Below, piece after piece: positions 4,129 to 64,000 of a stretch of 64,000 nucleotides of DNA. Position numbers and translations under genes: made by a program. The stretch comes from an uncultured Mycoplasmatota bacterium. GTDB lineage: Bacteria; Bacillota_I; Bacilli_A; RF39; UBA660. The stretch is taken from the NCBI GenBank assembly GCA_900551105.1, contig URUT01000001.1:857-64856 (forward strand), given 5' to 3'. Position 1 is the first letter of the stretch; each line of letters starts with the position of its first letter. The notes under the pieces were generated by a model that made no database searches, was not told the origin of the DNA, and was given only the letters and a program-made list of their open reading frames with translations.

Positions 4129-4821
4129 TTAAATCTTTTTATTCTTAATAAATTCCCTAAAAATCTTAGTAATAGCTCTTTTTTCTATTCTAGAAACATA
4201 ACTTCTAGATATTTTCATTTCTTTACTAATTTCTTTTTGAGTCATTTCTCTAGTATTATATAAGCCATATCTTTTAATTATTATTTCTTTTTCTCTTTTA
4301 GATAAAGTATCTAAATATTTAAGTAGCAAATCTATTTTATTTTGAGTATCAATCATATCAGCAATATCTTCATTATCACATTTTAAAACATCAATTAAAT
4401 TTATTTCATTACCATCTTTATCAAAACCAATTGAATCATTTAAACTTACATTATTTAAATGCTTCTTATTACTTCTATAATGCATTAAGATTTCATTTTC
4501 AATACATCTAGCAGCATAAGTTGTAAGTCTCGTATTTTTACTTGGTTTATACGAATCAATTCCTTTTACTAAGCCTATTGTACCAATGCTTATTAAATCA
4601 TCTTGTAAATATTCGTTGTTTTCATATTTTTTTACAATGTGCGCAACTAATCTTAAATTATGCTCAATAAGTTTATTTCTTGCATCTTTATCCCCAAGTA
4701 GCATCTTTCTAGTGGCTTCTTCTTCATCAGTTTTATTTAGTGGCTGAGGAAAAACATTAATTGAATAAGAACCTGTAAAAAACATTAGGCCTTTTAACAA
4801 ACTAATTAAATATAACATCAA
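4129..4821 (-). CDS. sigK: RNA polymerase sporulation sigma factor pro-sigma-K, intact (no skin-like interruption)
   Basis: Hydrophobic pro-sequence ending ...NVFPQPL, then KLIEHNLRLVAHIVKKY, DLISIGTIGLVKGIDSY and TYAARCIENEILMHYRS. These are near-identical to B. subtilis SigK (FPQPL; LIEHNLRLVAHIVKKF; ATYAARCIENEILMH). Confidence 0.85.
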   Translation of the reverse strand: MMLYLISLLKGLMFFTGSYSINVFPQPLNKTDEEEATRKMLLGDKDARNKLIEHNLRLVAHIVKKYENNEYLQDDLISIGTIGLVKGIDSYKPSKNTRLTTYAARCIENEILMHYRSNKKHLNNVSLNDSIGFDKDGNEINLIDVLKCDNEDIADMIDTQNKIDLLLKYLDTLSKREKEIIIKRYGLYNTREMTQKEISKEMKISRSYVSRIEKRAITKIFREFIKNKKI

Positions 4822-4885
4822 ATCACCTAATAAAATATATGAAAACTATTATAAAAACTAGACTGTAAACTTTAGTTATGATAAT

Positions 4886-5962
4886 ATGTTTATGGTGGTA
4901 AAAGTGAAAAAAATCGTTTTATTTTTAATAATGTTAAGTTTTCCAATCTTAGTAAGTGCCAATAATAACTATAAAGTAGTTAAGCATTATATTGATAGTG
5001 AAATAGAAATAAGTGGTAACCTAAGAGTAAAAGAACTTCTTATCGTAGATGGTGAAATTGATTATTTATTAAGAACTCTTAATTATAATTCTTTTGGTAG
5101 CAAATGGGATGGTAAAACTGTCAATCTAGAAAATGGTGAAATATATAATGCCTTAAATATTTATAACTTTGCTTGTAGTGCTTATAAATATAATAATGAA
5201 GAAATTAATATCAATGATTTAGGTAAAGATGTTACATATTTTAAAGAATTAGATCCTAAAAAAGTTAGCGATAAAACCTTTAATATAAAAACAAAAGATG
5301 GTGAAAATGATTACTATATTTATTACCAAAGTAGTGGGTTAACCGCGTTTTACTTAGAGTATGTTATTGGTAATGCAGTAGTATCTCATAATGATATAAA
5401 GGAGTTAAATTACACATTTAAAAATTTAAATTATGCACCTAAGACCACTCTTTTAAGAGTTCTAATCCCATATCCAACTAGTGATGAAAGTTATCATGCA
5501 TTTCTTCACGGCGCTAAAGGTGGTTATGAAGATATTGAAAAAGACGGTCAAAAATACGGAATAGTAGCAGTCTATGAAAACTTAAAAGGTAGCCCAAATA
5601 TAAGAATAACTATGCCACTAGATCAAGTTCCTATTGATATTAATACAAACAAATCAAACATTGATGCACTAGACAAAATAATAGAAATTGAAGATAAATT
5701 AAGTGCTAATAGTCAAAAGGGTAAAACAATCAATAAATATGCTAAATTAGTTCTAATATCATTAAGTATTTTATATGTTCTAGTAGGTATTTATATTTAC
5801 AAAAACAGTAATAAAGTATTACTACTAATCTACTCAGTTCTAGGTTTATTACTATGTTTATTTAATTATTTATTTAAAACAGAAATCTATTATATTTACT
5901 TAGTTATCCTTGCACCTATATTATTATTTATTATCAATAAAATTAAAGAAAGAAAAAATTAA
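4886..5962 (+). CDS. signal-peptide membrane protein, possibly DUF2207-like
   Basis: N-terminal signal (LFLIMLSFPILVSA), a beta-rich ectodomain and C-terminal TM helices. The N-terminal domain pattern loosely resembles the DUF2207 gene at 33387. Confidence 0.35.
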   Translation: MFMVVKVKKIVLFLIMLSFPILVSANNNYKVVKHYIDSEIEISGNLRVKELLIVDGEIDYLLRTLNYNSFGSKWDGKTVNLENGEIYNALNIYNFACSAYKYNNEEININDLGKDVTYFKELDPKKVSDKTFNIKTKDGENDYYIYYQSSGLTAFYLEYVIGNAVVSHNDIKELNYTFKNLNYAPKTTLLRVLIPYPTSDESYHAFLHGAKGGYEDIEKDGQKYGIVAVYENLKGSPNIRITMPLDQVPIDINTNKSNIDALDKIIEIEDKLSANSQKGKTINKYAKLVLISLSILYVLVGIYIYKNSNKVLLLIYSVLGLLLCLFNYLFKTEIYYIYLVILAPILLFIINKIKERKN

Positions 5963-5964
5963 TT

Positions 5965-6552
5965 ATGCAATATTTTGAAAATAACGAAAATTTAAAAAGT
6001 GAATTAAGAACACTTAACTATACTTATGAAAACAATCATTTTACCTTTTATAGTGATCTTGGCGTCTTTTCGAAAGATAAAATTGATTTGGGAAGCCGAC
6101 TTCTAGTAGAAACTTATTTTAAATACGGTAAAAAATCTATTAAAATTCTAGATGTCGGTTGTGGTTATGGTTTTATTGGCATAACCCTAAATAAAGTAAT
6201 GGATGCTAACGTAGATATGATAGACATTAACGATAGAGCAATGCACCTAGCCAAAATGAATCAAAAGGAAAATAAAGCGGTAGTTAATATCTTTAAAAGT
6301 AACATCTATGAAAATATTACTGAAAAATACGACTGCATAATAAGTAATCCACCAATTAGGGCAGGTAAAAGCGTTTATTTAACGATTATTAATGAAGCTC
6401 CCAAATACCTTAATCCTAGTGGTGAATTATGGTTTGTTATGCGTACCAATCATGGCGTAAAAACTGTAATTAAAAATTTAAAAGCAAAATATAGTGTAGA
6501 AATTCTAAAAAAAGATATGGGATACTACATAGTTAAAGTATTATGCGCATGA
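5965..6552 (+). CDS. class I SAM-dependent methyltransferase, RsmC/RlmG small-domain type
   Basis: SAM motif ILDVGCGYGFIGI and catalytic ISNPPIRAG (NPPY-like) in a 195-aa ORF. Confidence 0.65.
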   Translation: MQYFENNENLKSELRTLNYTYENNHFTFYSDLGVFSKDKIDLGSRLLVETYFKYGKKSIKILDVGCGYGFIGITLNKVMDANVDMIDINDRAMHLAKMNQKENKAVVNIFKSNIYENITEKYDCIISNPPIRAGKSVYLTIINEAPKYLNPSGELWFVMRTNHGVKTVIKNLKAKYSVEILKKDMGYYIVKVLCA

Positions 6553-43881: not shown

Positions 43882-44370
43882 ATGAATAATTTAAGTATGA
43901 TTGCTGCAATCGGCAAAAATAATGAACTAGGTTATGAAAACAAACTTCTTTGGCATCTAAAAGAAGATATGCAGTTTTTTAGAAAAACTACAACTGGTAA
44001 AACTATAATTATGGGTAGAAAAACTTTTGAAAGCCTGCCAGGACTGCTTCCTAAAAGAAAACATATTATTATAACTAGTAACCAAAACTATCAAAATAAT
44101 GACGTTATTATCATGCACAGCGTAGATGAAGTAATTAGTTATATTCAAAATACTCAGGAAGAATGCTTTATAATTGGTGGTGGTAAAGTTTATAAAGAGT
44201 TTTTACCATTTGCTCATACTCTTTATTTAACCGAAATAGAAGACTCTAAAAGGGCTGATACCTTCTTTCCCGTATTTTCAAAAGATGATTATCACAAAGA
44301 AATTTTAGGTTCATCAAGCGAAAATAATATTAATTATAGCTTTGCAAAATATACAAAGAAATCAAACTAG
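43882..44370 (+). CDS. folA: dihydrofolate reductase
   Basis: DHFR motifs (MIAAIGKNNELG, LLWHLKEDMQFFRKTT.GK.IIMGRKTFESL, FIIGGGKVY) in a 162-aa ORF, immediately after thyA. Confidence 0.85.
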   Translation: MNNLSMIAAIGKNNELGYENKLLWHLKEDMQFFRKTTTGKTIIMGRKTFESLPGLLPKRKHIIITSNQNYQNNDVIIMHSVDEVISYIQNTQEECFIIGGGKVYKEFLPFAHTLYLTEIEDSKRADTFFPVFSKDDYHKEILGSSSENNINYSFAKYTKKSN

Positions 44371-44422
44371 CATTTTTCCTCCTTTTGTGGTATGATACTA
44401 TATCACAAAGGGGGAAATTTTT

Positions 44423-44821
44423 ATGTGTAAAGAAGGACCGTATGAACTCTTAGTTCCAAAATTAGTTTGGATAGATAAATTATTAAGAACAAAAGGTAAT
44501 GTTGATATGCGTGTCAGATGGAATAGTCATAAGCAGCTTAAAACTATGCCTGGAAACATCATTCTAAAATTAACTTTTCATATAGACTATCTAACTCGTA
44601 GAGTAAATGATGAATACGAAAGAGCAAATAGAATTATCAGCATAATGTTTGCTTTTACAAGAATTTCACCAAAACTATATTTTGCAACCGATGAAGAACT
44701 TTACAATTTAGAAGAAGAACTAATCTATAAAAGAGTAGAAGACTATCCCGATGAAGCTGGAATAATTTCTATACTAGGAAAAATAAAAGAAGCATCTAAA
44801 GAGAGTAAAAACACCCTTTAG
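44423..44821 (+). CDS. hypothetical protein
   Basis: 132-aa ORF with no recognisable motif. Confidence 0.3.
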   Translation: MCKEGPYELLVPKLVWIDKLLRTKGNVDMRVRWNSHKQLKTMPGNIILKLTFHIDYLTRRVNDEYERANRIISIMFAFTRISPKLYFATDEELYNLEEELIYKRVEDYPDEAGIISILGKIKEASKESKNTL

Positions 44822-53983: not shown

Positions 53984-54808
53984 ATGGAAAAATATAAAGA
54001 AATAGAGCGCTCAATAATTAAAAAATATCGCAAAGAAATTTGGGCAAAATTCGTAAAAGCAGTAAAAGAATATGAACTAATAAAACCAAATGATAACATC
54101 ATGGTTTGCATAAGCGGTGGTAAAGATTCCTTTTTACTAGCAAAATGTATAGAAGAACTAAACAAACATGGAGACATTCAATTTAAAGCAAAATGTGTTT
54201 GTATGAACCCCGGTTACAGTGAAGAAAATATTAATAAAATCAAAGAAAATGCTCAAAAACTAAACATAGATTTAGAGATATTTTCAAGTGATATTTTCAA
54301 AGTTATAGATAGTGGCATCTTTAAAAGTCCATGTTACTTCTGTGCTAGAATGCGCCGTGGGCATCTTTATAATAAAGCTAAAGAATTAGGATGTAATAAA
54401 ATTGCTCTAGGACACCACTTTGATGATGTCATTGAAACTACGCTTTTATCAATGTTTTATGGCTCTGAAATCAAAACAATGATGCCAAAACTAAAAAGTG
54501 ATAACTACGAGGGCCTAGAACTCATAAGACCTCTATACTTAATTAAAGAAAGCGACATCATCTCTTGGAAAACTTATAATGAACTTGTATTCTTAAACTG
54601 TGCTTGTTCCTTTACGACCAAAGATGCCCAAGAAAAAATAAGCAAACGAAGAGAAATGAAAGAACTAATTAAGAACTTAAGAAAAGTTAATAAAGACATC
54701 GACTATAACATTTTTAAATCTTTAGATAACGTCAATTTAAACTGCGTGCTAGGAACAACAACTAATGGAATTCATAAAAGTTTTTTAGAAGACTACGAAA
54801 ATAAATAA
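53984..54808 (+). CDS. ttcA: PP-loop ATPase, tRNA 2-thiocytidine synthetase TtcA-like
   Basis: PP-loop SGGKDS in MVCISGGKDSFLLAK, CxxC pair (CYFCARMRRG), GHHFDD and a second Cys cluster (CACS). Start at ATG 53984 after RBS GAGGT. Confidence 0.65.
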   Translation: MEKYKEIERSIIKKYRKEIWAKFVKAVKEYELIKPNDNIMVCISGGKDSFLLAKCIEELNKHGDIQFKAKCVCMNPGYSEENINKIKENAQKLNIDLEIFSSDIFKVIDSGIFKSPCYFCARMRRGHLYNKAKELGCNKIALGHHFDDVIETTLLSMFYGSEIKTMMPKLKSDNYEGLELIRPLYLIKESDIISWKTYNELVFLNCACSFTTKDAQEKISKRREMKELIKNLRKVNKDIDYNIFKSLDNVNLNCVLGTTTNGIHKSFLEDYENK

Positions 54809-54850
54809 CAAGTAGTCTTTTTTATGCTATCTTTGAATACTTTTTATTAG

Positions 54851-55261
54851 GTGATAAAGTTGAAAAAAATAATTATATTGCTCTTAATATTAATAATTCC
54901 AGTAACAGTAAAAGCTGAAGAGTTAGACATTACTGCTAAGTCTAGTATACTAATAGAAGCTTCAACCGGTGAAATATTAAGTGAAAAAAATAGCGATGAA
55001 AAGCTTGCTCCTGCATCTATGACTAAAATCATGACAATGCTTCTAATTATGGAAAGCCTTGAAAAAAATGAATATAGTCTAGAAGATAAAGTAAATATCA
55101 GTACTAATGCCGCAAGCATGGGAGGAAGTCAAGTCTTTCTAGAGGCAGGTTCTGAACTAAAAGTAAAAGAACTACTAAAAGCAATTGCTATCGCATCCGC
55201 TAATGATGTAGTAGTGACAAAAAAGCAGTCGCAAGTTATAGGCGAAGAAATAATAATATAA
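54851..55261 (+). pseudogene. dacA: D-alanyl-D-alanine carboxypeptidase (PBP5/DacA-like) gene truncated after about 136 codons
   Basis: Signal peptide, SxxK active site (PASMTKIMT) and alignment to B. subtilis DacA through ...AIAIASAND. The frame then stops after GEEIII, although full-length DacA homologues run about 380-440 aa. The downstream DNA encodes an unrelated Rep-like gene. Confidence 0.55.
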
Positions 55262-55311
55262 CTACTTTAAAACCTTATATTTTAGAGTATTATTATAAAT
55301 TGTATATATAA

Positions 55312-55338
55312 TTAAAAAGCCGATTAGGCTTTTTTTTG
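55312..55338 (+). terminator. intrinsic terminator
   Basis: AAAAGCCGATTAGGCTTTTTTTT, with stem AGCC / GGCT. Confidence 0.5.
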
Positions 55339-55350
55339 GAGGTGAATTCA

Positions 55351-56109
55351 ATGTCAATTTTTAAGATAGAAAAAAATAAAAATTATACAGTTATGAGTAA
55401 TCATCACTTAAGAGATAAAAATTTAAGTTATAAGGCTAAGGGATTGTTGTCATTTATGTTATCATTGCCAGAAGATTGGGACTACTCAATGAATGGGTTA
55501 GAATCAATAAGCAAAGAAAGCATAAAAGCAATTAGGAATATACTTCAAGAATTAGAAGAAAATAAGTATTTGATAAGAACAAGAATGCAAGATAATGAAG
55601 GGAAATTTTATTATGATTATTCAATTTACGAAATACCATTTGATATAAACCCGTATTACCAAAAAGGGCATACGGTAAAAGGGCGTACCGAAAAGGACAT
55701 ACAAATAAATACTAATAAACAAAATACTAAAAAACAAATAGATAAAGATGATAAAACCAAAATATCATCTTTTTTTGTGCCAGAAGAACATAATATTTTA
55801 ACCTTAGAATTAATTGATAAGGGTTTTATAAAAAAAGAAGATATACAAATTTTTTATTATGATAATCTATTTGAACAGTTAATACAAGATGGCAACTCTT
55901 ATAAAGATTTAGTTAAAATAATTCATTATATAATTCCGAGAGTTTTAAAAAGAAATTTTAAAGATGAAGATGGTAATGAAATAGAAAATAAGTTTGGATA
56001 TTTTAAAAATGCAATTATTAGCAATATAAATAAACTTAATACGGATATAGAAGATTTATGGGGAGAAGAAGAACTAGAAGATATATATAGTTCCAATATG
56101 GAAAGATAA
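55351..56109 (+). CDS. plasmid / ICE-type replication initiator-like protein (RepA_N / DnaD-like winged-helix N-domain)
   Basis: YTVMSNHHLRDKNLSYKAKGLLSFMLSLPEDWDYSMNGLESISKESIKAIRNILQELEENKYLIRTR matches the conserved N-terminus of Firmicute plasmid/phage Rep proteins (Y..v.N.l.rd..LS.kAKGl.afm.SlP.dW.f...gL.......k.ai...i.eLe..gYl.R). RBS GGAGG lies 8 nt before the ATG. Confidence 0.6.
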   Translation: MSIFKIEKNKNYTVMSNHHLRDKNLSYKAKGLLSFMLSLPEDWDYSMNGLESISKESIKAIRNILQELEENKYLIRTRMQDNEGKFYYDYSIYEIPFDINPYYQKGHTVKGRTEKDIQINTNKQNTKKQIDKDDKTKISSFFVPEEHNILTLELIDKGFIKKEDIQIFYYDNLFEQLIQDGNSYKDLVKIIHYIIPRVLKRNFKDEDGNEIENKFGYFKNAIISNINKLNTDIEDLWGEEELEDIYSSNMER

Positions 56110-56296
56110 GCATAAAAAAATCGTCTCTAAACTAGCAGACGATCTACTTCTCAGTTGAAAAATACTACATTACTGCATCAACTGAATCAAATTCACACGA
56201 TACTACATATGCTATTTGATAAATCAATAATAACACAAAAATTGCCTTAATGCAACAAAAAAATCCAAAATACTCCACTTTTTTTGTCAAAATCTA

Positions 56297-56324
56297 TTGA
56301 CTTTTCTTTTTAAAACTATATAAT
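56297..56324 (+). promoter_or_regulatory. strong sigma-A promoter of the island operon
   Basis: TTGACT, 16 nt, TATAAT. The greA-like start at 56384 follows after RBS AAAGGGGGAA. Confidence 0.55.
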
Positions 56325-56383
56325 AAATAATCGGTAAGACCAAATATCTATTTAATAATAATCTTTGAAAGGGGGAATAATAA

Positions 56384-56932
56384 ATGAAAAATAATGAAGA
56401 AAAGTTATATTTAGATAATGATGGCTATCAGAGATTACTTGAAGAAATAGATTTATTAAAGGCAAAACTTGCAAAAAATGGAAAAGAAAAAGGAGAAGCC
56501 TATTCTGGTGCAGTAGGTGACGGATGGCACGATAATTTTGCTTTTGATGAAGCCAATATGCAAGAAAGAATGATTTTAGGTCAACTTAAAGAATGTTACC
56601 AAAAATTAGAAAGAGCAGTAATTGTAGAAAGACACGATGATGAAACATTAGTTGATGTCAACGATATTGTTACAGTAGATATGATTTTCGGACCTGATGA
56701 TAGTGAAGAATTAGAATTTAAATTAGTTGGCTCTGTAGGATCACACACTTCTGATAATAGTGGTATTCAAGAAGTTTCAATTAATAGTCCATTGGGTAAG
56801 TCAGTTTACCATAAAAAAGTCGGAGAATCAGCAAGTTATAAAGTTGAGAGTAGAATCTTTAACATAGAAATTTTATCAAAGGTTTCTGAAAAAGATTTAG
56901 AAAGTGGAATTCAAAGAAAAAAAACTAGATAA
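56384..56932 (+). CDS. GreA/GreB-family (Rnk-like) transcription factor
   Basis: N-terminal coiled coil (GYQRLLEEIDLLKAKLAK) and C-terminal FKBP-like Gre domain (VSINSPLGKSVYHKKVGESASYKVESRIFNIEIL matches iS..SPlG.allGkkvGd......p.g...y.I..i), in a 182-aa ORF. Confidence 0.65.
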   Translation: MKNNEEKLYLDNDGYQRLLEEIDLLKAKLAKNGKEKGEAYSGAVGDGWHDNFAFDEANMQERMILGQLKECYQKLERAVIVERHDDETLVDVNDIVTVDMIFGPDDSEELEFKLVGSVGSHTSDNSGIQEVSINSPLGKSVYHKKVGESASYKVESRIFNIEILSKVSEKDLESGIQRKKTR

Positions 56933-56948
56933 TATAAGGAGGGCAATT

Positions 56949-57074
56949 ATGAACAAATTTATTGTAAAATTAAAAGAAAAACAAAAATATAAAGAATTAA
57001 AAACTAGTGTTTGTTCATCAAAAAATGAATTATTTTGTTGTCCCCTAAAAAAATATTTAAAGAGTATCAATTAG
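56949..57074 (+). CDS. 41-aa Lys-rich, Cys-containing peptide MNKFIVKLKEKQKYKELKTSVCSSKNELFCCPLKKYLKSIN: candidate precursor or leader peptide
   Basis: Near-perfect RBS AAGGAGGG lies 5 nt before the ATG. Its last codons form the 5' arm of a terminator hairpin, and the ORF sits between greA-like and the biosynthetic operon. Cys are at positions 22, 31 and 32 (tandem TGT TGT). Confidence 0.45.
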   Translation: MNKFIVKLKEKQKYKELKTSVCSSKNELFCCPLKKYLKSIN

Positions 57075-57107
57075 TTAACAATTTTAGCTTTTGATACTCT
57101 TTTTTTC
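57059..57107 (+). terminator. intrinsic terminator / attenuator between the peptide ORF and the downstream operon
   Basis: Twelve-bp stem AAAGAGTATCAA / TTGATACTCTTT with a 20-nt loop, then TTTTTC. The 5' arm contains the peptide stop codon. Confidence 0.6.
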
Positions 57108-57124
57108 AAATGTAAGGGTTTAAG

Positions 57125-58837
57125 GTGATGAAAATGAAAGAAGAAAAATTTCCAATTATAAAGGCTGGATACATATTTAATAAATTTAATGCTAAAGTAA
57201 ATATTCCAGTAATATTAAATAAACAAGAAGTTGAAATTAAATATCCGTGTAGGCTAGATGCAATGGCTATAAATCCAGCGGCAGTTTGTTATAATGATAG
57301 TATGGTTTTTACTCCTGGTGAAGTAGTAATATCGCTAAAAAAATTTATAAAGGTTAAAATTACTGTAAAAAGTGAAAGTGGAGGACAATTGAATATCTCC
57401 AAACGAACAAAAAGAAAAGTTTTAGTAAAGCATTCTTACTTATTAATGTGTAATGCTTTAAATATCTCTCCTTCTTTGGATATTGATGTTGATGATGATG
57501 ATATACCAAAACATTGTGGTTTTGGATCAAGCAGTTCTACAATATCTGCTGTTGCTTCTGCTATTAATGAACTATATTCGTGTCCAATTAATGATAAAGA
57601 TTTAATTATATATTTAGCATCTAATCACGGAGAAGAAATCTCTGACAATGATGAAGAAAATTTAAAAGTAGTTCAATGTATTGGTGGTGGTGCTACTAAT
57701 GGGTTAACTGAAGAAGGCATTATAATTATTGCAGGTAAATCAACTGCTATTGCTAAAATGAAATATGAATCAGAAGTGTTAATAGGTTTTCCAAATGACT
57801 TTGTTCAAAAAGATGCTAAAGTATTAATGGAACTAGAAGAAAAAAATTTATGGAAGTTTAAAAAGACTGGCGAAGAATATGCTGAAAAAATAGCATACGA
57901 TTTACTACATAAAGCATTACCAGATATGGCTAATGGTAATATAAAAGAATTAGCTGATGTTGTATTTGATTATAGATTTAATATGGGAAGTAATGAAAAT
58001 TGTTCATTTGTTTATGACGGGTTAATGAATATTAGTGATAAAATAAGAAAACTCTATGAAAATAATGACTGTGAATTTTTAGCATTGTCTTCTGTTGGTC
58101 CTGCATTCTTTGTATTAGTAAAGAATGAAAATCAAAAAAAGAAATGTAAAGAATTTATGGAAAAATTAGATTTAAAAGTAATTGAATCATCTGTTTGTAA
58201 TACCAAATATATAGTTTCTAAATTTTCTAATGCACAATGTTTTTGGGAAAAAGAAAATGTTGGAGAGTCATTTAGAACACGAAAGCCATCAAAATATATT
58301 ACGGATCAAATTGATGCTTTAAATGTATCAGATAAAAAGTGTATCGATATAGGATGTGGTGGTGGAAGATATTCCAAATATTTACATCAAATGAAAGCAA
58401 ATGTATTAGCAATTGATAAATATCAAGAGATGTTTGATCATAATTCAAATATAAACTTTGTTCAATGTAAAATGGATAATATTCCTGTGGTTGAAAATTC
58501 ATATTATTTAGCATTATCTATTGGAGTAATACATAATGCCATAACAATTGAAGAATATAAAAATTCATTAAAAGAAATTTATAGAATTCTTAATAAAGAT
58601 GGATATGCGATATTATCGACATTTACAAATGATGTTATTACTAGTGATTTGATAAAAACAGGGGAAAATACTTATTTAATTAAAGATAGACCACCAATGG
58701 TATTATTGAGTAAAGAACAAATACAAGATTATGTGTCTGAGGTTGGATTTACAATAATTAAAATAGTTGATGAACATATAACTGATGTTGGAAGTGGAGA
58801 AAGAAATGTTTATACAGTCCTTATTAAAAAACAGTAA
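57125..58837 (+). CDS. two-domain enzyme: N-terminal GHMP-kinase-fold domain plus C-terminal class I SAM-dependent methyltransferase
   Basis: GHMP ATP-binding motif PKHCGFGSSSSTISAVASAI at about aa 128. C-terminal MTase motif I CIDIGCGGGRYSKYL, post-I acidic residue (LAIDKY) and motif II region. 570-aa ORF. Confidence 0.6.
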   Translation: MMKMKEEKFPIIKAGYIFNKFNAKVNIPVILNKQEVEIKYPCRLDAMAINPAAVCYNDSMVFTPGEVVISLKKFIKVKITVKSESGGQLNISKRTKRKVLVKHSYLLMCNALNISPSLDIDVDDDDIPKHCGFGSSSSTISAVASAINELYSCPINDKDLIIYLASNHGEEISDNDEENLKVVQCIGGGATNGLTEEGIIIIAGKSTAIAKMKYESEVLIGFPNDFVQKDAKVLMELEEKNLWKFKKTGEEYAEKIAYDLLHKALPDMANGNIKELADVVFDYRFNMGSNENCSFVYDGLMNISDKIRKLYENNDCEFLALSSVGPAFFVLVKNENQKKKCKEFMEKLDLKVIESSVCNTKYIVSKFSNAQCFWEKENVGESFRTRKPSKYITDQIDALNVSDKKCIDIGCGGGRYSKYLHQMKANVLAIDKYQEMFDHNSNINFVQCKMDNIPVVENSYYLALSIGVIHNAITIEEYKNSLKEIYRILNKDGYAILSTFTNDVITSDLIKTGENTYLIKDRPPMVLLSKEQIQDYVSEVGFTIIKIVDEHITDVGSGERNVYTVLIKKQ

Positions 58838-59891
58838 TTATGTTGTTTCTAAAAGAAACTTTCTATCAGATTATTCAAGAATTGAATCTAAAAAAATAGA
58901 TATGACATTGTCTGGAAAATTTTTATCTAGTTATGGTAAATTAAAAATAAATCCAAAGGAATTTGACAAATATCCATCACACGATGAGATTAATAAGTTA
59001 GAGCAAGAAATTAAAAATCACGAAAATATACAACAAGAAATAATTTTAGGTGCAGGAGCAAATGGCATTTTACAAAATATCATAAAACTGTTTTTTGTTA
59101 AAAGAGGAAATTTGGTTACACCATTTTATACATTTAATCAAGTTGAGTTTGGAGTTACATCTTTTAATGGTAAAACATATAGAGTTTTTACTGATAATTA
59201 TAAAATTAATTTTAATAAAATGAAAAAAGCTATTAATAGAAAAACGAGAATGGTTTATATTTGTAATCCTAACAATCCAACTGGTCTATATGAAAATTGT
59301 GAAAATATTATAAATTTTGCCAAAAGTATAAATGTTCCTGTTGTCGTTGATGAGTCTGGAATAGAATTTACAAATAAAAAAAGTTTATTGAGTTATAAAA
59401 ATATTCCTAAAAATTTATTAATTGTAAGATCATTTTCTAAAGCCTATGGTATTGCAAATTTTAGACTTGGTTATCTTGTGTGTAACCCCGAATTTAAGCA
59501 AAGTTATCTTGAAAATATAACGACAAACGAATTTTCTGGGTTGTCTTGTATAGTTGCGAACGAGTTGTTGAAAAATGGAAAAGAAAATATAACGAATAAT
59601 ATTAAATCTATAACCAAAGAGAAAAAAGTAATAATTAAAAAACTTGATAAAATAGGAATTAAATGTATTTTAAGTGATTCAAACACTATAATGACAGACA
59701 GCGTTTTTAAAAACGAATTTTTAAAACTACTTGAACAAAATAATATATCAGTTGTTCCAGTATATGATGAAAATAATAAATTGCATATAAGAATTGCAAT
59801 TCAAGATGAAATTACAAATAAAAAGTTTGTAGATATTTTAGTAAAAATAATGAACGAATATCAAGTATTAGAAGATGGAGGTAAAAAATGA
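58785..59891 (+). CDS. PLP-dependent class I/II aminotransferase-fold enzyme (HisC / CobD-like)
   Basis: ICNPNNPTG motif and PLP-lysine motif RSFSKAYGIANFRLGY. The ORF overlaps the upstream stop, and the true start may be at a downstream ATG (58806 or 58902). Confidence 0.65.
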   Translation: MLEVEKEMFIQSLLKNSNYVVSKRNFLSDYSRIESKKIDMTLSGKFLSSYGKLKINPKEFDKYPSHDEINKLEQEIKNHENIQQEIILGAGANGILQNIIKLFFVKRGNLVTPFYTFNQVEFGVTSFNGKTYRVFTDNYKINFNKMKKAINRKTRMVYICNPNNPTGLYENCENIINFAKSINVPVVVDESGIEFTNKKSLLSYKNIPKNLLIVRSFSKAYGIANFRLGYLVCNPEFKQSYLENITTNEFSGLSCIVANELLKNGKENITNNIKSITKEKKVIIKKLDKIGIKCILSDSNTIMTDSVFKNEFLKLLEQNNISVVPVYDENNKLHIRIAIQDEITNKKFVDILVKIMNEYQVLEDGGKK

Positions 59892-61057
59892 AAATATCGT
59901 TAGCAACAAATTTTGATAATAAATTAATTGATCAAATTAAAGATTATCCTGTGTATGAAGTTTATGGAAAAATGAAACACGATTATATTGGTGGAGGAAG
60001 ACCAGATAACACTTTGTCCAATATAGATAAAGAATTATTTGAATCTCACATTAAAAAGGTAAGAGAAGCAGGTATTAGATTTAATTATTTACTGAATGGT
60101 AGTTGTTTATCCAATAATGAGCAAGATCCAGCGTGGCAATCTGAATTCAAAAGGTTTTTAGAATATTTAAAAGATATAGGCGTTAATGCTTTGACAATAA
60201 CTAATCCGTACATTTTAATGTTTGTAAAAAAATATTTTAAAGAAGATTTTAAAGTTAGGGTTTCCACATTTGCTTGTATTGACTCTTACACAAAAGCAAA
60301 ATACTGGGAAGATCTTGGTGCAGATTACTTATGTGTAGATTTTGTAAAAGTAAATAGAGATTTTAAGACACTAAAATATATGGTTGATAATTTAAAAACA
60401 GCTAAAATAGAGATTTTAGTAACAAATAGTTGTTTAAAAAATTGCCCTATGATATATACACATACAACTGGCTTATCTCACGCTTCGAATAAAGATAAAA
60501 ATAGTAATTCTTATGAAGATTGGAGTTTGTTTTATTGTCAAAAAAAAGAATTAGAAAATATTGAAGAATATATTAGATCACCGTGGGTTAGACCTGAGGA
60601 TATTAAATTTTACGAAAATATTGGTATAGAACATTTTAAAATTACTGAAAGAGGTTTTCCAACTGAGGAATTGGTGAAAAGAGTGAAAGCCTATACTGAT
60701 AGAAAATATGAAGGTAATTTGTTAGATTTAATACAAGGACACGGCGTAGTAGCAAAAGATGATTTGAAATTACAAAGGCAAAGTGTTAATAGTAGAAAAG
60801 AAATATATGAAGAAATTAGACGAGTTAGAGGATTAGGAAGACAAAGAGAATGTGAGAGACATATATATATTGATAATAAAAAACTTGATAATTTTATAAC
60901 ATTCTTTATAGATAATAAGTGTACAGGCAATTGTAACTCGTGTGGATATTGTAATATGATTGCTAAAAATGTAATTACTAAAAACAAAGAAGTATGTGAT
61001 TATTTATTGGAATTATATAACAAATATGATGAAGTAAAGATGGATGTAAATGAGTAA
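59888..61057 (+). CDS. U32-family (peptidase U32 / RlhA-TrhP-like) protein with a C-terminal Cys cluster
   Basis: The TIM-barrel segment order matches the U32 topology (GVNALTITNPYIL; RVSTFACIDSYTKAKYWEDLGADY...VNRDFK; KIEILVTNSCLKNC, similar to vElevFvHGalC..yS). C-terminal CTGNCNSCGYC. Assignment by pattern only. Confidence 0.45.
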   Translation: MKISLATNFDNKLIDQIKDYPVYEVYGKMKHDYIGGGRPDNTLSNIDKELFESHIKKVREAGIRFNYLLNGSCLSNNEQDPAWQSEFKRFLEYLKDIGVNALTITNPYILMFVKKYFKEDFKVRVSTFACIDSYTKAKYWEDLGADYLCVDFVKVNRDFKTLKYMVDNLKTAKIEILVTNSCLKNCPMIYTHTTGLSHASNKDKNSNSYEDWSLFYCQKKELENIEEYIRSPWVRPEDIKFYENIGIEHFKITERGFPTEELVKRVKAYTDRKYEGNLLDLIQGHGVVAKDDLKLQRQSVNSRKEIYEEIRRVRGLGRQRECERHIYIDNKKLDNFITFFIDNKCTGNCNSCGYCNMIAKNVITKNKEVCDYLLELYNKYDEVKMDVNE

Positions 61058-61637
61058 GATTGGGATTGATATAGCGGATACTATTATAGATGTTTGGCCT
61101 TCTTTAATAAAAAAAGCAAAACAATTCAACCTAGAACATTCAAATAATAAACCAAGTGAGGAAAAACATTTATATTTGCCAGAAGATATATATGGCTGGT
61201 CTAAAGAGGAAAAGGAAGAATTTTGGGAGTGTTATGGACAAGAAATAACATTTTCATCACCAGTAAAAAAGGGAGTAGTTGATACTTTACAATATTTTAA
61301 AGAATTGGGATATTTAATATATTTTATTACTGCAAAGACAGAAGATACATATGCTGATTTGGAAAAGAAAATTATAGAATTGTTAGTGAAAAATAATTTG
61401 CCTTATGACAAAATATTTATGCAAGTTAGTAATAAAGGAAAATTTTGTTTTGAAAATGGAATTGAATATTTAATAGATGATTCTTTTGATAATTGTTCAA
61501 AAGCTAATCAGTATGGAATAAAGAGTCTATTGATGACTAACGAATACAATATTGACAGAGTACTATACGACAATATGTATAGAATCAATGAATTTTCGGA
61601 AGCAAAAAAATATATTAAAAAAAATAGGAGGTTTTAG
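61050..61637 (+). CDS. HAD-superfamily NT5C-like nucleotidase (paralog of 40211)
   Basis: KIGIDIADTIIDV (degenerate DxDxT), YFITAKT and YLIDDSFDN. Overall colinear with the 40211 protein. 195-aa ORF. Confidence 0.5.
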   Translation: MSKIGIDIADTIIDVWPSLIKKAKQFNLEHSNNKPSEEKHLYLPEDIYGWSKEEKEEFWECYGQEITFSSPVKKGVVDTLQYFKELGYLIYFITAKTEDTYADLEKKIIELLVKNNLPYDKIFMQVSNKGKFCFENGIEYLIDDSFDNCSKANQYGIKSLLMTNEYNIDRVLYDNMYRINEFSEAKKYIKKNRRF

Positions 61638-62239
61638 TGAAAAAAGTATTGTTTTTGGTTGGACCACACGCAAGTGGAAAAACATACTCATCAAGAGAGT
61701 ATATTGCAAAAAATAAAAATATTGGAATGATTGATACTGGACCAATTATGAGAAGAATACATAAAGAAATGGATCCAGATACTTCAATGGGAGATTGGGT
61801 AAAAAAATTAGAAGTTCAGTATGGAAAGGATATTACTTCTCAATTGATTTCAAATGAAATAGGTAAAATAATGTCTAATGATGAGTGCGATAAATTTATC
61901 TTAATTGGATTTAGAACATTAGAAGGAATAGCATTTACTATTCAACATTTGAATATAGAAGATTTTAGTATTTTATATGTAGATGCAACGCAAGAATTAT
62001 TATATAAAAATTATTTAGCAAGAGAGAAGAAAAATATTTCATTTGAAGATTTTAAAAACTATTTACAAAATGAGTTAAATAGTGGGCTTACAAAATTAAG
62101 GGAAATGGCATTAGATGGTGATATGGTTGATTATTATTATCGTTTCAGTAATAATGATAGTTTTGAAGAAAAAATAGATAGCCATTTAACTAATTGTGAG
62201 ATAAAAAAATTAAGAAAGGAGCCTAAAAATGGAAAATAA
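61637..62239 (+). CDS. P-loop NTPase, predicted nucleoside / nucleotide kinase
   Basis: Walker A VLFLVGPHASGKTY at the extreme N-terminus in a 200-aa ORF. The size and layout are typical of small (d)NMP or nucleoside kinases. Confidence 0.5.
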   Translation: MKKVLFLVGPHASGKTYSSREYIAKNKNIGMIDTGPIMRRIHKEMDPDTSMGDWVKKLEVQYGKDITSQLISNEIGKIMSNDECDKFILIGFRTLEGIAFTIQHLNIEDFSILYVDATQELLYKNYLAREKKNISFEDFKNYLQNELNSGLTKLREMALDGDMVDYYYRFSNNDSFEEKIDSHLTNCEIKKLRKEPKNGK

Positions 62240-62822
62240 TTATATTTGGCCTATTGAACCACAATATAAAGTCTTGGAACACGACAGATATGGTTTAAGG
62301 CCAGTGCATATGATACTTGGAAAACCTAGATTTCATTCTGGATTTGATATTACTGCACAAACTCTTACCCCAGTAAAAGCATCAATTGAAGGAATTGTTG
62401 TATCAGCAGGTTTAGACGAAAAGATTATATCTGGAAGTGCAAAATGGAATGAAAGATATGGCAACAAGGTTGAAATATTGGATAGAAATGGTAGAAGACT
62501 AGTCTATGCACATTTAAGAGAAGTTTTAGTTCAACTTGGTCAGCAAATAGAACAAAGCCAAATAATTGGTTTAAGTGGTTGCTCTGGTGGTTCAAGAATA
62601 CCTCATTTACATTTTGAAGTAAGAAAATTTGATACTAGTCATTCTGGAGAAGAAAATACTATTAATCCATTGGAGATATTACCATACTATGATTTGGAAA
62701 ATTTAGCAAAACACTTTGATGAAGAACCCTATGCAGAAGTATGGGAAAAATTTCTAGAAAATCCGTGGGGAATGACTGATAACGATATTCCTTATGCAAA
62801 TTGCAGAAAATTAATAAGATAA
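62229..62822 (+). CDS. M23-family (LytM-type) metallopeptidase domain protein, no signal peptide
   Basis: HxxxD (HSGFDI), central YGNKVEILDRNGRRLVYAHL and C-terminal HLHFEV motifs in a 197-aa ORF. Confidence 0.65.
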   Translation: MENNYIWPIEPQYKVLEHDRYGLRPVHMILGKPRFHSGFDITAQTLTPVKASIEGIVVSAGLDEKIISGSAKWNERYGNKVEILDRNGRRLVYAHLREVLVQLGQQIEQSQIIGLSGCSGGSRIPHLHFEVRKFDTSHSGEENTINPLEILPYYDLENLAKHFDEEPYAEVWEKFLENPWGMTDNDIPYANCRKLIR

Positions 62823-62860
62823 TAAAAATATATGGTATAATAGAGTTGGAGGATGATAAA

Positions 62861-63439
62861 ATGGAAAAACCAATATATTTAACTGGTAATAAGGGGAAAT
62901 TTGAGGAGGCACAACATATTTTTAAAGATATGTATGGATTTGATATCGAGATTAAAAATCCTGATTTTGAAATCATTGAAATACAAGCAAAAAGTTGCAA
63001 AGAAGTAGTTGCATTTAGTGTAAAATATGCTTGTGAAAAATTAGGCAGACCTTGTATTAAATCAGATTCTGGTTTATATATAGATGCTTTAGGAGGCCTA
63101 CCTGGTCCTTATAATGCATATTTTGACAAGCAAATTGGTGTTGATAAGTTCTTGGAATTATTCAAAAACGAAACTAATAGAAAGGCAAGATTAGAAGATT
63201 GTTTTGCTTATTGTGAGCCAGGACAAGAACCTGTTATATTTACTGGTGGTGGAACTGGTACAATAGCAACAGAAGCAAGAGGTAATTTGGGAAGATGGCA
63301 CGATAAGTTTTATATTCCAGATGGGGAAACAGAAACATTAAGCGAATTAAGAGAAAAAGATAGAGATTATGAAGCAAAATTTTGGGGTACTGCTAAATAT
63401 GATTTTGCTGAATGGTTTAAAAACAATAAAATGCAATAA
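62861..63439 (+). CDS. non-canonical purine NTP pyrophosphatase (Ham1 / RdgB / ITPase family)
   Basis: IYLTGNKGKFEE (similar to ATGN.GK..E), KSDSGLYIDALGGLPGPYNAYF (similar to DDSGL.vdAL.G.PGvySaR) and CFAYCEPG. Start at ATG 62861 after RBS GGAGG. Confidence 0.7.
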   Translation: MEKPIYLTGNKGKFEEAQHIFKDMYGFDIEIKNPDFEIIEIQAKSCKEVVAFSVKYACEKLGRPCIKSDSGLYIDALGGLPGPYNAYFDKQIGVDKFLELFKNETNRKARLEDCFAYCEPGQEPVIFTGGGTGTIATEARGNLGRWHDKFYIPDGETETLSELREKDRDYEAKFWGTAKYDFAEWFKNNKMQ

Positions 63440-63460
63440 AAAATTTTGATAGGGGGTCAA

Positions 63461-64000
63461 ATGATGAAAAAGGTTACAATCATTGCGGGACCGTGTGCAG
63501 TTGAATCTGAGGAACAAATAGTTAGGATTGCCATAAAACTAAAACAAATTGGTGTTGATTATTTAAGAGGCGGTGCATTTAAACCACGAACTAACCCAGA
63601 CAGTTTTCAAGGATTGGGAGATTTGGGAATAGAATATCTTTTAAAAGCTAAAGAAATAACTGGCTTACCAATTGTTACCGAATTAATGACAATAGAACAG
63701 GTAAGAAAATATGCAGATAAAATTGATATTATACAAATTGGTAGTAGAAATATGTATAATTATGAATTATTAAAAGAATTAAGCCATTATTCAAAACCTG
63801 TATTATTAAAAAGAGGTTTAAGTGCCACATATAGTGAATGGATTAATGCTGCAAAATATATAAATAATGAAGACAAGGTTATTTTATGTGAAAGGGGAAT
63901 AAGAAGTTTTGACACAACAACAAGAAATGTCCTAGATATTCAAGCAGTTCCGTATATTAAAAATAACACAAAGCATAAAATTTTTGTTGATCCTAGTCAC
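63461..64000 (+). CDS. aroF: 3-deoxy-7-phosphoheptulonate (DAHP) synthase, type I-beta catalytic barrel only (3' end beyond window)
   Basis: IIAGPCAVESEEQ, LRGGAFKPRTNPDSFQGLG, QIGSRNMYNYELLKEL, VLLKRG, VILCERGIRSFDTTTRNVLDIQAVP and IFVDPSH. These match Thermotoga / Bacillus-type DAHP synthase better than KDO8P synthase. RBS GGGGG precedes ATG 63461, and there is no N-terminal regulatory domain. Confidence 0.75.
   Translation, partial: MMKKVTIIAGPCAVESEEQIVRIAIKLKQIGVDYLRGGAFKPRTNPDSFQGLGDLGIEYLLKAKEITGLPIVTELMTIEQVRKYADKIDIIQIGSRNMYNYELLKELSHYSKPVLLKRGLSATYSEWINAAKYINNEDKVILCERGIRSFDTTTRNVLDIQAVPYIKNNTKHKIFVDPSH

Follow-up and report, generated by a model that had tools for sequence, protein, structure and literature searches.

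A short reading frame that runs into a terminator ahead of an enzyme operon: a candidate ribosome-relieved attenuator in uncultured gut Bacillota

Introduction

Why should a short open reading frame (ORF) with a strong ribosome-binding site (RBS) run into a transcription terminator directly ahead of an enzyme operon? The question is raised by a 41-codon leader ORF (56949-57074, plus strand) in a 64,000-nucleotide (nt) stretch of contig URUT01000001.1 from an uncultured Mycoplasmatota bacterium (RF39; UBA660). We call the whole stretch the window and use its numbering throughout. The ORF lies between a gene for a GreA-like protein and an operon whose first enzyme gene encodes a fusion of a GHMP-kinase-like domain with an S-adenosylmethionine (SAM) methyltransferase, here GHMP-MTase. 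A first-pass annotation of the sequence had offered two readings: the precursor of a ribosomally synthesised and post-translationally modified peptide (RiPP), or a leader peptide that stalls the ribosome at tandem Cys codons and so controls read-through into the GHMP-MTase operon.

Where metabolic operons are concerned, attenuation by ribosomes is seen as a trait of Proteobacteria. The usual devices of Bacillota are riboswitches, T-boxes or RNA-binding proteins, and their polymerases are believed to run ahead of the ribosomes. The comparisons reported here nevertheless lead us to favour, with moderate confidence, an attenuator like those of pyrBI and pyrE, in which the translating ribosome itself would act as the antiterminator.

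Results

A leader ORF that ends inside a predicted terminator

The Shine-Dalgarno (SD) sequence of the leader, AAGGAGGG (56936-56943), is followed after a 5-nt spacer by the ATG at 56949, and the frame continues for 41 codons to a TAG at 57072-57074. The encoded peptide is MNKFIVKLKEKQKYKELKTSVCSSKNELFCCPLKKYLKSIN. Near its 3′ end the frame crosses an A-rich spacer, AAAAAAATATTT (57047-57058), whose A-run varies in length between strains and thereby shifts the reading frame. It then enters a hairpin with a U-run (57059-57106, plus strand). The hairpin (57059-57102, 44 nt) consists of a 12-bp outer and a 6-bp inner stem and is overlapped by a run of seven T residues at 57100-57106. Its 5′ arm, AAAGAGTATCAA (57059-57070), provides codons K38-S39-I40-N41 and faces the 3′ arm TTGATACTCTTT (57091-57102), so that the leader stop is at +13 relative to the hairpin start. 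Direct reading thus confirms the RBS with its 5-nt spacer and the 12-bp stem with T-run holding the last four codons and the stop, both described in the first-pass annotation, and the observation of an ORF joined to a terminator is genuine. Only the distance of the Cys-Cys pair from the stop needs correction, from nine codons to ten, as the pair occupies codons 30-31.

The region 57030-57125 folds at −22.7 kcal/mol (z = −4.06), and none of 200 shuffled sequences was as stable. The hairpin alone (57059-57102) has a folding energy of −16.8 kcal/mol and is followed by U7; it therefore has the stem-loop and U-run of an intrinsic terminator and is predicted to terminate transcription. A terminator scan overlooked it because the scan limited loops to 8 nt. 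The SD of GHMP-MTase follows the U-run at a distance of only 15 nt. A consensus scan found no plus-strand promoter-like site (at least 9/12 matches) between 56412 and 57125, and Rfam 15 gave no relevant match in 54000-64000 of the window (E ≤ 1) or in eight related loci (E ≤ 0.1).

The layout recurs in diverged relatives

Relatives of GHMP-MTase number in the hundreds in protein searches. The closest genome record is an uncultured human-gut 'Mollicutes' metagenome-assembled genome (MAG; L001, 97%), relatives at 60-85% are MAGs of gut Bacilli and Clostridia, and those near 40% belong to Patescibacteria and Streptomyces. We fetched 138 loci, 59 of them from species-representative genomes, 71 from metagenomes and 8 by exact-protein look-up (denoted L with a number). 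About 20 diverged relatives (60-99% GHMP-MTase identity) have an RBS, a short ORF and a terminator before the first gene of the operon. In these ~20 lineages, the leader stop falls about −7 to +33 nt from the hairpin start, or else the ORF reads through.

Where GHMP-MTase leads the operon (the 68-99% group), the usual order is SD, ATG, one open frame of ~26-53 codons, then hairpin and U-run. This layout is present in the window group, L135, L131, L007/L138, L069, L071, L136, L073, L075, L006, L004, L008, L005, L094 and L076, and nearly all relatives have an SD-like motif 4-10 nt 5′ of the leader ATG. The stop is at −2 in L006 and L136; at −1 in L061, L063, L066, L065 and L131 (a TAA in L061, L063 and L066); at +4 to +13 in L008, L076, L094, L004, L007, L069, L073 and the window; at +19 in L071; at +28 in L075; and at +33 in L135. 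In L005, the ORF continues through the hairpin to the enzyme ATG. The layout also stands before the P-loop kinase gene where that gene leads the operon: L009 has a 32-amino-acid (aa) ORF with its stop at +9, L077 a 58-aa ORF that reads through, L099 a 12-aa ORF with its stop at −1, and L012 and L013 have ORFs of 7 and 6 aa whose stops lie 5-7 nt before the hairpin. L070, in which a DAHP_synth_1 gene comes first, has a 39-aa ORF with its stop at +10. These arrangements support the view that the ORF-into-terminator element moves with the 5′ end of the operon. Because a promoter-like site directly precedes the leader in several relatives (L007, L075, L131, L009, L099 and L070), we read the ORF as a 5′ leader and not as the tail of another gene.

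Is the open frame itself maintained? In each of 13 lineages, just one frame reaches the hairpin over more than 30 stop-free codons, and the other two are closed. After dinucleotide shuffling of the interior, such an open frame arose in 2-17% of trials per lineage (0.03 for the window). The product of these probabilities over 12 lineages is 10^-14.4, a figure that assumes independence of the lineages, which is only roughly true; the leaders are unalignable outside the hairpin. An open frame is thus unlikely to persist by chance, and the leader ORF is presumably translated.

The hairpin is homologous across lineages, with a common AAAGAGT...ACTCTTT base and compensatory changes further up the stem; the stems are wholly different in L004, L008/L010, L076 and L005. 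Over 14 lineages, stems measure 10-17 bp and −11.7 to −21.6 kcal/mol, and a U-run always follows. The GHMP-MTase start lies 22-30 nt past hairpin and U-run, and across relatives the distance from terminator to first gene is 17-35 nt.

No comparable leader ORF was found among the inspected Patescibacteria or Streptomyces loci. A hairpin at L035, a locus of this comparison group, was considered as a leader element and rejected, as it ends a long upstream gene.

Several relatives show further features upstream of the operon. In four loci from lineages without an upstream GreA-like gene, some 100-170 nt of apparently untranslated RNA would separate a promoter-like site from the leader ORF (L007 5693-5836, L008 45-151, L010 1010-1178 and L005 5672-5838); these stretches have no Rfam match, and TAGTCGTGTTAGCAAGAAA is common to L008 and L010 near the predicted start. 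In L136 (1095-1200), a second strong SD and a mini-ORF of 5 codons (MNEIK) come after the leader ORF and terminator, with ~90 further nt up to the GHMP-MTase start, so this longer leader may be composite. L065 is a strain-level recombinant (2807-2830, 4732-6439) in which the ORF is kept and the SD and upstream GreA-like gene are swapped for unrelated sequence; it has no aminotransferase gene, and a 58%-identical U32 gene directly follows GHMP-MTase.

The peptide sequence is unconstrained

A search of 5.8 billion proteins with the leader peptide returned only four near-identical (strain) clusters, and the peptide has no Pfam match. The first-pass annotation had suggested looking for it beside GHMP-MTase homologues; tblastn against 59 loci found it in L001 only. 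Peptide length ranges from 6 to 58 aa across relatives. Even within the clade sharing at least 95% GHMP-MTase identity there are three C-termini (...KKYLKSIN, ...KKIF and ...KNI), together with an in-frame 15-nt deletion (5 aa) and several substitutions. The different C-termini arise from changes in A-run length at 57047-53 (L061, L063, L065, L066 and L135), with L135 (81% GHMP-MTase identity) in the third frame. In all three frames, a stop occurs at the hairpin, at −1, +13 and +33.

No residue is conserved across lineages in kind or position. Cys-Cys is Tyr-Tyr in L069 and absent in L007, L071, L073 and L006, and L001 has Tyr in place of C22. In composition, the peptides match translated AT-rich filler, being enriched in S, F, K and Y and depleted in A, D, G and T. 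Ser is enriched 1.9-fold (p = 3e-5); we do not take this as a sign of Ser sensing because UCAUCA segments that face the AUG and SD explain the excess. Pfam and NCBIfam scans detected no RiPP maturase domain (LanB/C/M, YcaO, radical-SAM/SPASM etc.) in the operon, and its U32 and M23 proteins match hydroxylase-type and cell-wall-type families. With a peptide so poorly conserved, selection cannot be acting on a RiPP precursor or a folded small protein. What is conserved appears to be that the frame is translated and where its translation stops, not the peptide.

No RNA antiterminator is detectable

Could the leader RNA switch between alternative hairpins? The 5′ arm of the terminator, compared with all upstream RNA, is less paired than in shuffled controls in most lineages. 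No excess complementarity was found between the middle of the ORF and either terminator arm (Fisher p 0.65 and 0.22) or between the SD/AUG region and the 3′ arm (Fisher p = 0.82). A switch of the trp or erm type is thus unsupported, and only an occupant of the 5′ arm could block the hairpin.

A helix closes the leader's own ribosome-binding site

The leader RNA is instead predicted to pair elsewhere. The 5′ side of an RBS-closing helix covers 56937-56958 (plus strand), with an SD part at 56937-47 and the AUG plus the next 7 nt at 56949-58. The anti-AUG segment GTTTGTTCAT (57009-57018, plus strand; codons V21-C22-S23-S24) pairs with 56949-58, and the anti-SD segment GTTGTCCCCT (57037-57046, plus strand; codons C30-C31-P32-L33) pairs with 56937-47. 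Both helices occur in the minimum-free-energy structure: the AUG helix as AUGAACAAAU (56949-58) with GUUUGUUCAU (57009-18), the SD helix as 56937-47 with GUUGUCCCCU (57037-46). RNAalifold on six sequences recovers the AUG helix (columns 20-29 with 82-91), and one position in it covaries, half of the sequences having C-G there and half U-A.

A position-specific duplex test took as partner the 46 nt ending 6 nt 5′ of the hairpin. Of 13 lineages, 8 had SD/AUG pairing stronger than in 1000 shuffles (p < 0.03; combined over the 13, Fisher p = 4e-7). The comparison of the window with L001 points in the same direction. Their flanking coding sequences are 93-94% identical in DNA and the loop part of the leader is at most 88% identical and carries a deletion, while the stretch from the anti-AUG and anti-SD segments through spacer and terminator (57009-57110) is identical at 101 of 102 positions. 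The sole change there, G57013A, compensates C56954T; at the protein level, the coding changes N2S and C22Y of L001 are the two sides of one AUG-helix pair.

All three Cys codons of the window peptide lie within the pairing segments, as do those of the Cys-rich L136 leader. The Cys content that had drawn the first-pass annotation to this ORF can thus be understood as a by-product of pyrimidine-rich anti-SD and anti-AUG sequence.

The operon and its neighbours

The best promoter-like site of the region, TTGACT-16-TATAAT (56297-56324, plus strand, 11/12 matches), lies upstream of the GreA-like gene and likely marks the start of the leader transcript. The intervening gene (56384-56932, plus strand, 182 aa) ends 16 nt before the leader ATG and encodes a divergent GreA/Gfh1-like protein. 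Its C-terminal domain matches Pfam GreA_GreB at 1e-08, its score against the NCBIfam GreA models is 62 bits (cut-off 145), and among PDB entries the protein is most similar to Gfh1, an anti-cleavage factor (E 0.002). The coiled-coil tip reads GDGWHDN, compared with GDLSEN in the GreA type. A Gre-family gene accompanies the operon in the window, L004, L006, L009, L011-L014, L021, L022, L068, L069, L073, L100, L119, L135 and L138, at a variable position, either before the first gene or after Ham1. The gene may encode either the sole GreA of the organism or a paralogue tied to the operon.

GHMP-MTase (57122-58837, plus strand) has the SD AAGGTGA and a likely start at ATG 57134. The rest of the operon (58785-63439, plus strand) encodes a HisC/CobD-like aminotransferase, a U32-family protein, a HAD-like protein, a P-loop (AAA_17) kinase, an M23 peptidase and a Ham1/RdgB nucleoside triphosphate (NTP) pyrophosphatase. 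All operon proteins (57125-63439) score below the NCBIfam cut-offs, and PDB sequence searches gave sub-threshold or generic matches; the GHMP domain weakly matches homoserine kinase, archaeal shikimate kinase and beta-RFAP synthase. The cluster is syntenic in MAGs of gut Bacilli and Clostridia, and a core of GHMP(-MTase), kinase, U32 and Ham1 also occurs in Patescibacteria. The L070 cluster has an extra DAHP-synthase-family gene. In Streptomyces, the fusion protein is found instead beside genes for PrnB-like and pyridoxal-phosphate (PLP) decarboxylase proteins. A literature search on the gene cluster returned nothing relevant.

Two further hairpins of the window deserve mention. A strong one at 44375-44417 (−21.9 kcal/mol) begins 5 nt past the stop of a DHFR-like gene (43882-44370) and ends 6 nt before an ORF at 44423-44821. 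The 5′ arm TTTCCTCCTTTTGTG has its partner in CACAAAGGGGGAAA, which appears to be the SD of that ORF, so the hairpin has the look of a terminator that also sequesters an SD. On the minus strand at 55314-55387, a sub-threshold Rfam match to PsrR1 (30 bits, gathering score 42) overlies a terminator-like hairpin that follows the HTH_36 gene region; a chance resemblance to a hairpin is its most likely cause.

Discussion

How might such a leader work? We propose, with the moderate confidence stated above, that it is a pyrBI/pyrE-like attenuator. Transcription would start upstream, before the GreA-like gene in the window and at a promoter before the leader itself in several relatives, and the polymerase would meet the intrinsic terminator ~15 nt before the RBS of the first enzyme gene. 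A ribosome translating the leader close behind the polymerase would cover the 5′ arm, or the bases just before it, as the 3′ arm emerges, and the polymerase would read through. With no ribosome loaded, or with a lagging one, the hairpin would form and transcription would end. The pairing of the leader SD and AUG with a segment 10-50 nt upstream of the hairpin would restrict loading to the time before that segment is transcribed, after which the site would shut. The ribosome may thus relieve termination and, because the peptides are arbitrary, a general variable is a likelier signal for it to report than any one amino acid. The leading candidate is the capacity for translation initiation set against the speed of the polymerase, its pausing or the NTP pools, a balance that the Gre-like factor encoded next door might modulate. 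In E. coli, the lead ribosome represses terminators that lie within about 10-27 nt of a stop codon, an effect that pyrBI uses for its regulation (PMC4824070). Li et al. (Nucleic Acids Research, 2016) found termination almost abolished with the stop a few nt from the hairpin and restored beyond ~27-30 nt (PMC4824070). The natural stop positions of our survey all fall within this repressing range, with the exception of L010.

Several observations weigh against this proposal. The element is absent or decayed in some close relatives (L133, 83%; L068, 84%; L072, L078 and L119), as it is in most of those relatives near 60% whose genes are ordered differently. The L010 ORF already ends at −24, short of the hairpin; the C-terminus of its relative L008 is encoded there in a neighbouring frame, which points to a frameshift or a fault of assembly. 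A test of RBS pairing probability over the structural ensemble, which holds no positional information, gave a weak result; we consider it uninformative, as any U-rich stretch can pair with a purine-rich SD. Nor is a stop that overlaps a hairpin anything special in this genome, since at least eight ordinary gene-end terminators of the window overlap or abut a stop codon at −18 to +5 nt (plus strand; 6545, 14812, 19725, 23908, 30895, 37449, 44375 and 50934). Such overlaps serve in the literature as a proxy for runaway, uncoupled transcription, and suggest that transcription runs away from translation here too; in runaway-transcription species, ribosomes are believed to have only a weak effect on terminators that end long genes. 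The lead ribosome would have to catch up within ~110 nt, presumably at a pause, and a conserved pause signal is not established. A T-tract is common 20-30 nt before the hairpin in the alignment (TTATTT at 57030-35 in the window), and a NusG-type TTNTTT pause motif was seen in about half of the lineages, by eye only, and is not claimed. Finally, every step of the mechanism is deduced from sequence and the evidence is wholly computational. What appears to set the leader terminator apart from the ordinary ones is its place inside a transcription unit, the retention of an ORF free of sequence constraint, and the RBS-closing helix. The ordinary gene-end terminators of the window stand 54-440 nt from the next gene, compared with 17-35 nt for the leader terminator.

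Do simpler explanations suffice? A constitutively leaky terminator could fix a low level of the operon, or the ratio of GreA-like to enzyme mRNA, with the ORF kept to protect the mRNA or for re-initiation. Of the alternatives we take this one most seriously, and still think it unlikely. Stop-overlapping terminators being the norm in this genome, the geometry needs no regulation; moreover, the leader stop of L005 overlaps the GHMP-MTase ATG (TAAATG), which fits translational coupling, and a general role for re-initiation after leader peptides has been proposed (PMC4833913, in excerpt). However, a stabilising or standby ORF would have no reason to end at the hairpin in ~20 lineages, nor to keep a conserved helix that closes its own RBS. 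A function in setting a ratio is difficult to reconcile with an element that occurs with and without an upstream GreA-like gene, and re-initiation with leader stops that, outside L005, lie 50-65 nt from the enzyme start. Were the ORF instead an ordinary small-protein gene closing the GreA-like unit, with a promoter of the enzyme operon that escaped the consensus scan, its strong RBS would be expected, and so would a stop inside a terminator, a layout typical of real genes here; gene callers do call the ORF in some assemblies. We find this improbable, because the peptide is unconserved, with its 6-58 aa, three C-termini in one species-level clade, 5-aa deletion and filler composition. In addition, only 15 nt separate the U-run from the next SD, and in L007, L075, L131, L009, L099 and L070 the ORF comes first after a promoter-like site and would have to form a transcription unit by itself.

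The two readings of the first-pass annotation assign the peptide or its codons a role. Its attenuator reading holds in part: a leader ORF with a terminator, placed to control read-through into the GHMP-MTase operon, is a layout kept in ~20 lineages. Stalling at the tandem Cys codons is the part that fails, as Cys is lost in relatives, its codons pair with the SD and AUG, and an antiterminator is lacking. More generally, an attenuator sensing Cys or Ser, in which stalling switches RNA structures, could invoke the Ser enrichment with its SS/SSS/SSSS runs (L071 and L094), the Cys-rich variants of the window and L136 (HFCCACSCLF), and the poly-Cys attenuator ORFs described in mycobacteria (bioRxiv 10.1101/834739, in excerpt). 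Yet the peptides share no amino acid, whether by kind or by position, the UGU/UGC, UCA and CAU codons are accounted for by the pyrimidine-rich stretch that pairs with SD and AUG, and with no antiterminator to promote, stalling in such a layout would raise termination; we hold amino-acid sensing to be very improbable. The RiPP reading, in which downstream enzymes would modify the peptide and a partial terminator would keep precursor mRNA in excess, drew on a short Cys-containing ORF with a hairpin after it, upstream of a methyltransferase and two 'peptidase' families. It has become barely credible: the four near-identical clusters make no peptide family, no core or leader is conserved, Cys is lost where the same enzymes stay, C-termini are frameshifted within one clade, the composition is that of filler, the operon encodes no known maturase domain, its U32 and M23 proteins resemble hydroxylases and cell-wall enzymes, and Patescibacteria and Streptomyces have the same enzymes without such an ORF.

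The pyrBI/pyrE-like reading can be taken further. Leader and Gre/Gfh1-like factor together might form a dedicated sensor of transcription-translation coupling in an otherwise uncoupled lineage, gating the GHMP-MTase/aminotransferase/U32/kinase/Ham1 pathway. The briefly open RBS and a terminator beaten only by a close ribosome would do the sensing, and the factor would tune pausing or speed. This extension is speculative and, in our judgement, rather unlikely. If the attenuator itself is real, it offers a compact natural test of the reach of a lead ribosome over termination in uncultured gut Bacillota, and the leader shows where a widespread, uncharacterised operon begins and that this operon is regulated. 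For genome mining, the lesson is that Cys-containing short ORFs beside enzymes can be by-products of RNA pairing (UGU/UGC, UCA and CAU codons).

How does the leader compare with known systems? The trp, his, leu and thr attenuators also combine a short leader ORF and an intrinsic terminator before a biosynthetic operon, and for the trp leader, a distal segment has been described that sequesters the RBS and so limits leader translation. In contrast to them, the leader described here has neither regulatory codon runs nor a mutually exclusive antiterminator hairpin, and its stop lies in the terminator, whereas theirs lies upstream of it. Closer in phylogeny are bmrB-bmrCD (PMC4191407), vmlR (PMC9226507) and yxjB (PMC6851288), Bacillota systems that likewise join a leader ORF to an intrinsic terminator. 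According to these sources, each in excerpt, such antibiotic-inducible attenuators rely on polymerase pausing despite largely uncoupled transcription and translation; in them, a drug-stalled ribosome favours an antiterminator and the genes confer resistance, whereas here we see neither an antiterminator nor a conserved stalling peptide, and the operon looks metabolic.

The nearest parallel is with pyrBI and rph-pyrE of E. coli, in which an ORF, with its own RBS or as the end of an upstream gene, also runs into or through a terminator before the structural genes (PMC4824070). There too, no RNA antiterminator is needed, and a closely following ribosome blocks the hairpin. Of the features that define the pyrBI type, the leader has an ORF with its own RBS running into or through a terminator, no competing antiterminator, and a terminator directly before the structural genes; pyrimidine genes and homology to the enterobacterial leader are lacking. 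The two have no sequence relationship and belong to Enterobacteria and to uncultured gut Bacillota, respectively, and the genes controlled here are not those of pyrimidine biosynthesis. Because the downstream genes differ and Rfam gives no match, the resemblance is one of mechanism and not of family membership. Two further differences concern the leader itself: the uridine triphosphate (UTP)-sensitive pause sites of pyrBI are not established here, and the present leader also closes its own RBS with a conserved helix. Finally, where Li et al. used a synthetic E. coli construct, the leader of this operon is a natural element.

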